A DNA stretch of 64,000 bases from an uncultured Chlorobiaceae bacterium (GCA_903851385.1 CAINOC010000036.1:13273-77272); one strand, 5' to 3'. Shown: positions 47,153 to 49,727, numbered from the stretch's first letter. Notes: generated from the letters alone by a model not told the origin. Numbers and translations: made by a program.

Positions 47153-48012
47153 GCCTCAAACCACAGTCTTCATGGCTATCTTGGTTCCTGTTTGTTGCTG
47201 TTTTGCTGCATTCGGTAGTTAAGTACTCTTTCTCGCCTGAGATTCAAGGTGACTTGTTGTTGTTGTACCCGACACTCTTAGCGGTTTTATGGATGGAGCG
47301 CAATAGCATATTCGAAACCTTTCGCAGCAGTGCCTTAGGTCATCCTGTGTTGGGATTTGTGCTTTTTATAGTAGGATCTTTTTTCGCTGTAGCTGGTGGG
47401 GTGGCGCCTTCATTAGTTGCTGAAGTTTTAGGGTTGTTTTTTATTGCTGCAGGATTTGTTGCATCTTTCGCTCCTTCCAATTATCTTCGTTCATCATTAT
47501 TCATTGCTTTTGCTGGTATTGTTATAGTGATCCTTGGCTCTATTGGCCCTTCGCTCTTATCGTCCGAACTGGCCGTTACGTTAGCTGCACTTTCAGCCAA
47601 AGTACTCAGCGCTACAATTCTGCCTGTTGTCGCAAACGGAGTCACCCTCTATTTTGGTCAATATAGTGCCACTGTGACCAAAGACTGTTCAGGGATGAAT
47701 TCCATTTTTTCATTGACAGCACTTTCTATTCTTTACCTCCGTGAGGGAGTGAATCGTAAACCATGGCATATTGCCTTGATGGTCGCAAGTATCATTCCAG
47801 TGGCGGTGCTTACCAATTTTATGAGAGTGATGCTTGTGGTACTTGCCACTTGGTACGTGGGTGATTGGTTTGCCCAGAGCATTTTCCATGAGACCATTGG
47901 TGTTGTAGCTTTTGTCCTGGCACTTCTGCTCCTGACATTTATCGATAGGTTATTGCTTTTTGCAAACTCTCTTGTAAAGCCTAATGATGGGAGCACTCAT
48001 GCGCCTGACTAA
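47149..48012 (+). CDS. Exosortase (EpsH family)
   Basis: About 8 TM helices; catalytic triad motifs DCSGMNS (Cys), TNFMRV (Arg), FHETIG (His). Confidence 0.9.
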   Translation: MSLKPQSSWLSWFLFVAVLLHSVVKYSFSPEIQGDLLLLYPTLLAVLWMERNSIFETFRSSALGHPVLGFVLFIVGSFFAVAGGVAPSLVAEVLGLFFIAAGFVASFAPSNYLRSSLFIAFAGIVIVILGSIGPSLLSSELAVTLAALSAKVLSATILPVVANGVTLYFGQYSATVTKDCSGMNSIFSLTALSILYLREGVNRKPWHIALMVASIIPVAVLTNFMRVMLVVLATWYVGDWFAQSIFHETIGVVAFVLALLLLTFIDRLLLFANSLVKPNDGSTHAPD

Positions 48013-48661
48013 ATACTCCCTTCTTGCTATAGTCTTTAGCCTTATCCTCATTTCATCTGAGATATTGGTTCAAATTAGGCAGCAACCTTTTAAGGGGGCA
48101 AAACCTGACTTGCAAAGCATCATAACGCAGCACCCCCAAGGCTGGGAGTCTATACCTGGTTCATCTGTAGATCCCAGTACAAACACTCCATACGATCTGG
48201 TTGCAACTCAAATCTATAAACGTGCTGATGGCAAAGAAGCCTCTATCGTTATGACTTGGAGCTTCGACGGCTTCCACCGGGCAGGGCACGCTCAGGAAGT
48301 GTGCTATAACTCACAAGGCTTTACTGTCTCAACCCCTCGGAATAGCTCAGTGATGGTAGGAGCTCAAAAGCTTGATGTCGTTACATTTGAAGGTCGCTAT
48401 GGCGATATGACTGAAGACGTCATCTATTGGAGAGTCACCGGCGGAATACACGACGCAACACTCCAGGAAAACATCCCCATGACACAGCGATTTAAAGAAG
48501 TCCCCCGAATCCTTATCGGTGATATTCCCAGCAACCTGATGGTCCGTGTATCCACCTGGCGCCCTGCCACCGACCCACCATCCACCGTCCACATCGACTA
48601 CATCAAATCCTACCTCCAATCCGTCTCACCCAACACCCGCCACTTCCTCACCGGTCTCTAA
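47999..48661 (+). CDS. epsI: EpsI-family exosortase-associated protein
   Basis: N-terminal TM; Y...QIYKR.DG, HAQEVCYNSQGF, VIYW, LMVRVST; overlaps the exosortase 3' end. Confidence 0.8.
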   Translation: MRLTKYSLLAIVFSLILISSEILVQIRQQPFKGAKPDLQSIITQHPQGWESIPGSSVDPSTNTPYDLVATQIYKRADGKEASIVMTWSFDGFHRAGHAQEVCYNSQGFTVSTPRNSSVMVGAQKLDVVTFEGRYGDMTEDVIYWRVTGGIHDATLQENIPMTQRFKEVPRILIGDIPSNLMVRVSTWRPATDPPSTVHIDYIKSYLQSVSPNTRHFLTGL

Positions 48662-48702
48662 ACCCCATCCCCGTCATTCCCATTTCCAGCAAGGAATCCG
48701 TC

Positions 48703-48798
48703 TACATATTCCGGCCAACCTCGAACACTAATTCCGGAAAAGGTCGAACAATTTTTTACCCTGACCGGAAAAGATGTTCGATATTGCCGGAATAAGCA
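48703..48798. mobile_element. 96-bp IS21-family-like miniature element (MITE / internally deleted IS)
   Basis: Ends TACATATTCCGGC and (reverse complement) TGCTTATTCCGGC, 11 of 13 identical; repeated units ATTCCGG-N6-TCGAACA at 48708 and 48731 and an inverted copy TGTTCGA...CCGGAAT at the right end; no ORF; no clear target duplication. Confidence 0.65.
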
Positions 48799-48872
48799 AT
48801 TTTAGCGCTGAAAACAAGGGCTGAGTGTGTAATTTGCCCATTTCCATCACCCAAAAAAGCTTACAATGTGAA

Positions 48873-48953
48873 CAGTCAGCATCAAATCCTGACTTTTTTT
48901 CATTATTAACTCAGTATTTTAAACTGCCGATTGCCCACTGTCAACTGCTAACT
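48873..48953. repeat. 7-nt-period repeat arm at the right edge of the polysaccharide locus
   Basis: CAGTCAGCA at 48873-48881; ACTGCCG-ATTGCCC-ACTGTCA-ACTGCTA-ACT at 48923-48953, ending 9 nt before ATG 48963. Confidence 0.75.
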
Positions 48954-48962
48954 CTAGAGTTC

Positions 48963-49727
48963 ATGCTTCTTCTCAACAAAATCCTTCCCTTGTTCTTTCT
49001 TCCCTTAGGATTCACCCTCTTATGTTTGCTCGCTGGTCTTGTTCTGCGCAAAAGGTTATTCCTCTGGTTTGGTGTTCTCGTACTATGCCTGTTCAGTATA
49101 CCCATCGTTAGTGATGCGCTGATGCGACTGGTTGAAGGTCCGGCAAGGCGGTCACCGCTTAGTGCAGTTAATAAAGCCGATGCTATTGTGGTGCTGAGTG
49201 GAATGCTTCATCAGATTAACGGCGCTCCATTGGGTGAGTGGGGTAGGACGGTTAATAGGTTTGAAGGAGGAATCGACCTTTTCAAAGCCGGTAAAGCTCC
49301 TGTTATTGTCTTTACACGTGGCCAGCTCCCATGGCAAACTTATGGTGTTCCCGAAGGTGACTTGTTGGCCAAGAGGGCGATACTGCTTGGCGTTCCACAA
49401 CATGCGATCCGTTTAACCGAAAATGTAGGCAACACCGCTGAAGAATCAATAGCTGCCGCAAAGTTGCTCGATGTTGGGAATGGTAGCGCAAAGAGGATTA
49501 TTCTTGTCACCAGCGCCTTTCATATGCCAAGGGCTCGTTTTCTATTTGAACAGGCTGGCTTTAAGGTTATTCCTTTCAGGGTGGATTATCACGCGGCTGA
49601 TACTCATGAGTTAACGGTTTTAAATTATCTGCCCAATGGAGAGTCGCTTGCTGAATCAGAAACAGCTTTGCGTGAAATGATCGGTTGGGTCTTTTATAGG
49701 GCCAAAGGATTTCTTAAAGTACCATAA
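48963..49727 (+). CDS. YdcF/DUF218 family protein
   Basis: 2 TM helices; DAIVVLSG, NTAEES, LVTSAFHMPRA, LREMIG. Confidence 0.88.
   Translation: MLLLNKILPLFFLPLGFTLLCLLAGLVLRKRLFLWFGVLVLCLFSIPIVSDALMRLVEGPARRSPLSAVNKADAIVVLSGMLHQINGAPLGEWGRTVNRFEGGIDLFKAGKAPVIVFTRGQLPWQTYGVPEGDLLAKRAILLGVPQHAIRLTENVGNTAEESIAAAKLLDVGNGSAKRIILVTSAFHMPRARFLFEQAGFKVIPFRVDYHAADTHELTVLNYLPNGESLAESETALREMIGWVFYRAKGFLKVP

Follow-up and report, generated by a model that had tools for sequence, protein, structure and literature searches.

The epsI gene and the composition of its 3' end

We analysed a 64,000-nt stretch of DNA (C36:13273-77272, hereafter the window) from the genome of a Chlorobium sp. (2.98 Mb in 120 contigs, with 2509 genes and 84% coding sequence according to our own gene calls), and examined the gene epsI, whose 3' end is rich in C and poor in G. 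Positions are those of the window unless a contig is named. The epsI gene (47999-48661, plus strand, alternative ATG at 47984) encodes a 220-aa protein of the exosortase-associated EpsI family. The product matches Pfam PF11984 with 46.9 bits against a cut-off of 26.1 (E = 3.5e-12), and the gene for the exosortase EpsH (PF09721) lies directly upstream and overlaps the epsI start; the profile score and the adjacency of EpsH place the protein in the EpsI family. A relative with 88% identity is annotated as an exosortase-associated EpsI family protein of Chlorobium sp. The gene is the final one of a co-directional, same-strand cluster of ~41 kb (7322-48661), an exopolysaccharide (EPS) cluster in which its upstream neighbours encode EpsH, a SurA-like protein and an AT3-SGNH acyltransferase. 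Downstream of epsI are genes for DUF218 (ATG at 48963), a cupin, FtsA and RecQ.

The initial annotation of this DNA reported that the codons of epsI become almost purely C-ending toward the stop, and its counts were reproduced exactly. The first 40 codons end in C 9, T 13, G 9 and A 9 times, and the last 40 sense codons (48539-48658) end in C 29, A 6, T 3 and G 2 times, the two G-ending codons being ATG and TGG, as it had said. All three codon positions of the last 40 codons are enriched in C and depleted in G (C13/G8 at the first position, C15/G5 at the second and C29/G2 at the third), and the 60-nt windows at 48560 and 48620 contain C30/G5 and C31/G5. The tail of C-ending codons (48509-48658, plus strand), which belongs to what we call below the type A allele, covers the last ~36-50 codons and encodes ...NLMVRVSTWRPATDPPSTVHIDYIKSYLQSVSPNTRHFLTGL. 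Its four-fold degenerate sites are C 20, A 4, T 3 and G 1 in the window, and 10 of 10 NNY codons (Y, pyrimidine) end in C; T is depleted in the tail in addition to G.

The skew of the tail is far beyond chance. The binomial probability of at least 29 C-ending codons among 40 is 7e-11 at the genome mean of the C fraction at third codon positions (C3, 0.234) and 6e-8 at the C3 of the upstream part of epsI itself (0.306), which rules out plain chance as the origin of the skew. The C3 of the last 40 codons of epsI, 0.725, ranks second among 2205 genes (mean 0.234, sd 0.095), and 29 or more C endings are found in 59 of 732,989 forty-codon windows genome-wide, confined to five genes. The 150-nt window at the epsI end (C72/G15) is the fourth strongest C>G window in the genome, and the majority of the other top windows are heptamer-repeat arrays. 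The best 78-nt window resembling a Rho utilisation (rut) site lies at 48574-48651 on the plus strand, with C 40 and G 4. Its C/G ratio of 10 occurs in only 272 of 5.9 million strand-windows of this length in the genome (top 4.6e-5), and it is the strongest C/G among the 935 gene ends that are followed by a gap of at least 80 nt.

The C-rich run was also claimed to continue into the spacer, and it does: every 78-nt window between 48453 and 48976 (~520 nt) has a C/G of at least 2. The C>G bias persists at near-tail strength for ~64 nt beyond the TAA stop (48659-48661), and C/G remains at least 2 for ~300 nt beyond it. The initial annotation was likewise right to place the skew at the right edge of the locus and not at the level of the protein. 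The core C>G unstructured tract (48545-48725, plus strand) spans the stop and contains 58 YC dimers in 181 nt, a density at which the YC spacing of 11-13 nt is satisfied trivially, C being at ~50%; the 176 nt from 48545 to 48720 are ~47% C and ~10% G. Folding of the RNA from 48540 to 48725 (186 nt) gives a minimum free energy of -18.7 kcal/mol with z = +1.15 and a centroid that is almost unpaired. In purine content, the tract at the epsI end ranks among the bottom 0.4% of sense-strand windows of a genome whose sense-strand purine bias is modest (0.517). No Rfam family matched the tail RNA, and this result together with the unstructured fold led us to reject a known or folded RNA as the explanation of the tail. 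The overlapping open reading frames in the tail (48546-48731 on the plus strand and 48347-48619 on the minus strand) were judged to be by-products of its stop-poor composition.

Several elements can be read in the spacer. C-runs (ACCCCATCCCC) are followed by a degenerate copy of a hairpin repeat (GTCATTCC-N-GGAATC), the two together occupying 48662-48702 on the plus strand and the repeat copy 48672-48702. The hairpin repeat TGTCATCCCGAA-N6-TGAGGGATCT has ~24 good copies in the genome, with the epsI spacer among the matches, and the same repeat follows the epsI stop in the related loci L008, L011, L014, L022, L031, L032 and L035. In its full form the dispersed repeat reads (C-rich leader) TGTCATCCCGAA-N6-TGAGGGATCT(C/A)TCT and often lies beside heptamer arrays; we take it to be comparable, in form only, to the neisserial dRS3-type intergenic repeats. 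Three copies of TTCCGG-N5-6-TCGAACA, two direct and one inverted, follow at 48709-48792 and could represent a hairpin, a pause site or a protein-binding array. This array had been labelled a miniature inverted-repeat transposable element (~48700-48810); inverted and direct repeats are present, but blastn-short finds a single copy in the 2.98-Mb genome, and the label has to be dropped. Both the hairpin repeat copy and the array are hairpin-capable and lie within 150 nt downstream of the C-rich tract, and they are putative pause sites.

Farther downstream, a weak terminator-like hairpin (48874-48900, plus strand) consists of AGTCAG, a 9-nt loop and CTGACT (a 6-bp stem) followed by T7, and it falls below the criteria of the terminator scanner, which returned 0 intrinsic terminator sites in 47900-49300. 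A degenerate heptamer stack (ACTGCCG, ATTGCCC, ACTGTCA, ACTGCTA, ACTCTAG; 48923-48957, plus strand) lies just 5' of the DUF218 start. The minus strand carries a promoter-like site, TTGACA-17-TAAAAT (48916-48944), which is so called by its 11 of 12 consensus matches only and which points into the epsI tail. This sigma-70-like match arises from the reverse complement of the degenerate heptamers.

Two tail alleles and their mosaic inheritance

DNA was obtained from more than 30 loci of relatives, and the composition of the neighbouring genes and flanks was checked in 24 of these loci. In the species representatives of the genus, epsI is 36-47% identical and has no C-rich end, and these sequences are too distant for an analysis of synonymous sites; the metagenome relatives, which form a graded identity series from 88% to 48%, were used for that analysis. 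No other part of the EpsI alignment comes near the conservation of the last ~40 residues (WRxxxDPPSTxHIDYIKxYLQS..P.TRxFLTG).

Two alleles of the tail are found in the relatives. The type A allele, which ends in ...TGL*, is present in 13 non-identical loci of about seven lineages, and its last 40 codons have a C3 of 0.53-0.72 and a G fraction at third positions (G3) of at most 0.10. Its four-fold sites are C 71%, A 17%, T 8% and G 4%, compared to 26/22/31/21 for the genome, and 91% of its NNY codons end in C, compared to 40% genome-wide. The type B allele, which ends in ...TGVGDY/NY*, specifies almost the same peptide but uses ordinary codons (C 41%, T 23%, A 17% and G 19% at four-fold sites; NNY codons 42% C), and the amino acid differences from B to A (RES to PAT, A to S, R to H, V to L) also strip G. 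The type A tail shares homology with those of type B and of the outgroup, and a search for a second copy in its own genome gave one match only, which together reject a repeat origin of the tail. Type A tails differ from each other by a dS (synonymous divergence) of 0.2-0.8, yet they keep a C/G of 3.4-4.1, and the minority bases at their mostly-C sites are T 20, A 15 and G 2. A 42-nt core, TCCACAGTCCACATCGACTACATCAAATCCTACCTCCAATCC, is nearly invariant across seven type A sequences. At its four-fold sites the tail has C 71% and G 4%, a stronger skew than that of the non-coding DNA beside it (C 28-42%, G 9-16%), and the total compositions are near equal, with a C/G of ~3.7 in the tail and ~3 in the spacer. 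The epsI tail and the first ~60-250 nt of the spacer thus form a discrete C-rich, G-poor and T-poor patch of the type A allele.

The two alleles are followed by different arrangements. In 13 of 13 non-identical type A loci, epsI comes last among the locus genes; the C>G spacer is at least 146 nt long, and at least 280 nt precede the next same-strand gene. The stop is followed by C-runs and the hairpin repeat and/or heptamer arrays, then by a convergent ParE/ParD pair, an insertion sequence (IS) or nothing, and then by DUF218. The first 100 nt of the type A spacers, which are partly unrelated to each other, have a C/G of at least 2.2 except where an IS sits at the stop. A scan for a hairpin followed by T residues in the 300 nt past the stop of the type A loci found no convincing intrinsic terminator and one doubtful site, in L016. 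In type B loci, a same-strand gene for a UDP-sugar dehydrogenase (Ugd) or a DegT aminotransferase begins at +25 to +93 nt, or a convergent gene follows, in which case a hairpin-T terminator lies at +115. In the more remote orthologues L018 and L002, the stop is followed by a classic intrinsic terminator at +54 to +59.

Tails and gene bodies have discordant histories. The body of the L011 gene is 48% identical to the epsI of the window, with a dN (nonsynonymous divergence) of 0.49, saturated dS and a C3 of 0.07-0.09, while its tail is type A with a dS of 0.41 to the tail of the window; its C3 jumps in a step from 0.07 to 0.65 with 49 codons left to the stop (2dlnL, twice the log-likelihood difference, = 73). 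Conversely, L017/L030 have a body near that of the window (dN 0.08) and a type B tail that matches the tail of L009 (tail dS 0.31, body dS 2.2). This discordance indicates that the tails travel with the downstream flank and not with the gene body, and, as read from the aligned sequences, it establishes recombination of the tail near a conserved NLMVRVSTWR motif.

In most type A loci the C-rich zone begins 36-52 codons upstream of the stop, and this distance is 81 codons in the L032 group and 139 in L016; the C3 step itself, again counted back from the stop, falls at 36 codons in the epsI of the window and at 49-52 in five relatives. A single step fits the epsI of the window slightly better than a gradient (Akaike information criterion 270.3 vs 274.4), as it does L008 and L011, and the two models tie in three close relatives, the resolution being weak in single sequences. 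The initial annotation had favoured a gradient, naming as the alternative a recent chimeric 3' segment with a sharp breakpoint from a uniformly C-rich donor. One half of that alternative stands: the 3' part is chimeric and separately inherited, and the step in L011 is sharp. The other half does not, as no uniformly C-rich donor and no C-rich EpsH, SurA-like gene or distal flank was found among the 24 loci, in all of which the C>G patch is confined to epsI and the proximal spacer.

The relatives also show mobile and toxin-antitoxin elements near the stop. An IS-end-like sequence (GTGGACCCC...) lies exactly at the epsI stop in L034 and at +85 nt in L026. L011 has an IS3-type transposase at +146, and ParDE and HigBA-like pairs lie in the same spacer of other relatives. 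This site is a hotspot for insertions.

Strand skew elsewhere in the genome

The skew of epsI was described in the initial annotation as the second instance of a junction-centred skew, the first being ~41 kb upstream. Our results do not uphold this, since the left junction is a step in the GC skew of the whole strand, which is another phenomenon. Over its first ~20 kb, which are rich in C and A, the top strand of C36 has A>T and a GC skew between -0.10 and -0.22; at window position ~7300 (C36 ~20,560), precisely where the nonulosonic-acid/EPS island has its left edge, the sign changes and the skew becomes +0.06 to +0.24. The ABC transporter gene at this junction has a flat C3 of ~0.35 without a rise toward its end. 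Left of the flip, the genes have a C3 of 0.33-0.46 and a G3 of 0.10-0.24, save a few with lower C3, and the only reliably called minus-strand gene (C36:8065-8760) mirrors the pattern, which identifies the skew of the left block as a property of the DNA strand. A strand-dependent pattern of third positions recurs on other contigs (for example C119:3216-12465, C24 and C17). On C119, the plus-strand genes have a C3 of 0.10-0.12 and a G3 of 0.25-0.42, and the neighbouring minus-strand genes have a C3 of 0.32-0.54 and a G3 of 0.12-0.18. The left junction is therefore a block-level switch of skew polarity, and at the right junction a local patch (0.2-0.5 kb) interrupts an otherwise G-rich top strand. 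The epsI tail is an allele-specific, recombining C>G patch and not a generic junction gradient.

Some further observations concern the left side. The polarity at the left edge is what an origin-type switch or a boundary of rearrangement or acquisition would give, and the ~20 kb of plus-strand genes left of the island bear a lagging-strand signature. In some relatives (L009 and the contig of P0011), an ABC transporter gene lies directly upstream of the SurA-like-EpsH-EpsI genes. Because the homologues are adjacent there, ~38 kb of AT-rich sugar genes (7322-45605) can be said to separate them in the genome of the window.

A candidate Rho loading site in the coding tail

We tentatively favour the reading that the type A tail is a rut site in the coding tail, which would insulate the downstream housekeeping genes. 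The RNA would then be the level at which the composition of the tail is selected. Transcripts of the ~41-kb EPS cluster would end in an unstructured C>G 'bubble' on which the canonical Rho hexamer of this genome would load, and transcription would stop before DUF218-cupin-ftsA-recQ; it could also be aborted when epsI goes untranslated. The third positions would be forced to an extreme because the first and second positions need G and other non-C bases, and the overall composition (C ~47%, G ~12%) would then equal that of the non-coding part.

The properties expected of a rut site, namely a C-rich and G-poor composition over at least 70-80 nt, frequent YC dimers, little structure and the presence of Rho, are all recognisable here from sequence. 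The Rho of the genome has 434 aa, matches PF07497 at 115 bits and aligns to residues 17-432 of Escherichia coli Rho (E = 1e-159), with the RNA-binding segments GFLR, DIYVS and GER(Y/F)FAL conserved. RhoTermPredict defines a RUT as 78 nt with a C/G > 1 and a hairpin within 150 nt downstream (PMC6407284), and the epsI tract has this composition, with putative hairpins within that distance. In Bacillus subtilis, tracts longer than 150 nt in which C is high relative to G almost always end in termination by Rho, and experiments there show that a translated gene acquires Rho-dependent termination when its synonymous codons are shifted toward pyrimidines (PMC13323073). Because type B writes the same peptide in ordinary codons, the C-ending codons of type A are required by neither the protein nor its translation. 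In addition, the greater skew of the four-fold sites relative to non-coding DNA is expected if the total composition is selected, and less so from a mutation bias that is blind to codon position.

The tail resembles the rut sites of Rho-dependent terminators (lambda tR1 and trp t'; the sites of the RhoTermPredict definition, PMC6407284; the C-excess tracts of B. subtilis, PMC13323073) as a long, C-rich, G-poor, YC-rich and unstructured RNA at the end of a transcription unit, with hairpin-capable elements within 150 nt downstream and a canonical Rho in the genome. Unlike those sites, its strongest part lies in the last ~45 codons of a translated gene, in which third positions are ~72% C; it is depleted in T, it is one of two alleles with nearly the same peptide, it stands outside any genome-wide pattern, and its Rho dependence is predicted from sequence. 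It also resembles the intragenic latent rut sites of E. coli transcriptional polarity, where Rho loads within a coding sequence and becomes active when translation fails. However, the tract closes the last gene and runs on into the 3' spacer, so it resembles an operon-end signal and not a quality control within the operon.

Several results weigh against Rho loading at the tail. The best 78-nt window is inside the translated coding sequence, which ribosomes would normally shield, and only ~64 nt of strong C>G bias lie past the stop. A metagene profile shows no general C>G enrichment at operon ends genome-wide, and sense C>G tracts at gene ends are no commoner than antisense ones; in the absence of a genome-wide operon-end pattern, the epsI rut site, if real, would be a special case. 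The base order of the tail, C >> A > T > G, is the signature of the replication-strand skew of the genome, only more extreme. Depletion of T is, to our knowledge, not a requirement of rut sites. Moreover, because type A is a single haplotype lineage, its association with the last gene of the locus amounts to about one evolutionary event.

Capsule and O-antigen loci are mosaic and are exchanged via recombination in conserved flanking genes. The epsI locus is similar in having a variable AT-rich glycan island between conserved flanks, breakpoints in a conserved gene end and discordance between body and tail, but this model covers the mosaic structure and leaves the C-rich, G-poor composition unexplained. 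A more speculative proposal, which we consider rather doubtful, combines the two aspects. The type A tail and its C-rich spacer would be a portable operon-end cassette, that is, a Rho terminator written partly in the last 45 codons and moved by homologous recombination among divergent Chlorobium EPS/exosortase loci, where it would shield the genes for cell division (ftsA) and repair (recQ) from read-through out of any glycan island plugged in; type B would be the 'open' version, in which the operon continues. If the tail does load Rho, a transcription stop signal would be encoded largely by synonymous codon choice at a gene end, and one peptide would exist in 'terminating' and 'read-through' versions selected by recombination, as a natural counterpart of the 2026 B. 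subtilis recoding experiments. This would affect the annotation of operon ends in bacteria with few hairpin terminators and would call for caution in codon optimisation. Even if the proposed function is wrong, epsI provides a clean case of mosaicism between tail and body at the edge of a variable glycan island.

A neutral, mutational origin is the strongest competitor of the rut reading, and we consider it possible though on the unlikely side. The tail would be a product of strand-asymmetric mutation, either as a relic of an allele that was long on the lagging strand or through local antisense transcription that made the minus strand rich in G and T, and it would have spread with its flank by recombination. 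The genome does have a very strong third-position skew between DNA strands, as on C119, and the 20-kb block left of the island (C3 0.35-0.46, G3 0.10-0.20, A>T) has the order C > A > T > G, as in the tail. This order of the lagging-type genes of the genome is what the tail shares with replication-associated GC/AT skew, in which the leading strand is rich in G and T. Four other genes have forty-codon windows with at least 29 C, further C-rich gene ends in this genome include those of C24:16902-18383, C24:184-1716 and C119:6412-7464, mosaic inheritance is demonstrated, and the spread of the C3 boundary from 36 to 139 codons before the stop is what nested recombination breakpoints would give. The near-consensus minus-strand promoter that points into the tail makes an asymmetry from antisense transcription conceivable, but the spacers, and hence any antisense promoter, differ between the type A lineages. 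In contrast to replication-associated skew, the epsI patch spans 0.2-0.5 kb of a top strand that is otherwise G-rich, and it is more extreme than any gene: the tail, with a C3 of 0.72 and a non-obligate G3 of 0, exceeds every whole gene, for which the genome maximum is ~0.54-0.56. A donor context is also lacking, as 0 of 24 loci have a C-rich EpsH, SurA-like gene or distal flank. In addition, the skew at four-fold sites far exceeds that of the neighbouring non-coding DNA, and the composition persists over a dS of 0.2-0.8.

Another function at the nucleotide level appears improbable to us. The G-less, unfoldable RNA end might bind another factor or set mRNA decay, or the DNA itself, with a G-rich template and a weak G-quadruplex, might act as a crossover hotspot that anchors swaps of the EPS locus. 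Recombination breakpoints do cluster at the start of the tail, but a simpler account of this is also at hand, since no other stretch is as conserved as the tail. The near-invariance of the 42-nt core in the seven type A sequences and the presence, in relatives, of IS and toxin-antitoxin insertions immediately behind the stop would suit such a role; however, the genome has no second copy of the tail and no recognisable recombinase or att structure goes with it. The minus strand has four G-runs in 46 nt with one 25-nt loop, which makes a weak motif, and neither an Rfam family nor a fold was found for an RNA-level role.

Translational codon optimisation of the C-terminus, like plain chance, is scarcely credible: NNC codons are preferred in the highly expressed genes of many bacteria, but the ribosomal-protein and EF-Tu genes of this genome are C3-poor (C3 0.13-0.22, T3 0.3-0.4), type B encodes the same peptide with ordinary codons, and the skew runs into non-coding DNA.

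The repeats near epsI were also considered genome-wide. Heptamer arrays or hairpin repeats as sense-oriented terminators were rejected, as their orientation relative to genes is only weakly biased. The genome contains 112 tandem heptamer arrays, with ACTCAGC and ACTGCCN (ACTGCCA/C/G) as the chief units. Their C-rich strand is the locally C-rich DNA strand in 56 cases vs 18, so the arrays are polarised with the replication-type skew, and they are polarised only weakly with gene direction (25 vs 11). The heptamer copies adjacent to epsI are in the discordant minority. Just upstream of the window, the UDP-sugar dehydrogenase gene C36:10628-11992 has an in-frame insert, ...NNRLPTADCRLPNE..., that resembles translated ACTGCCG heptamers.

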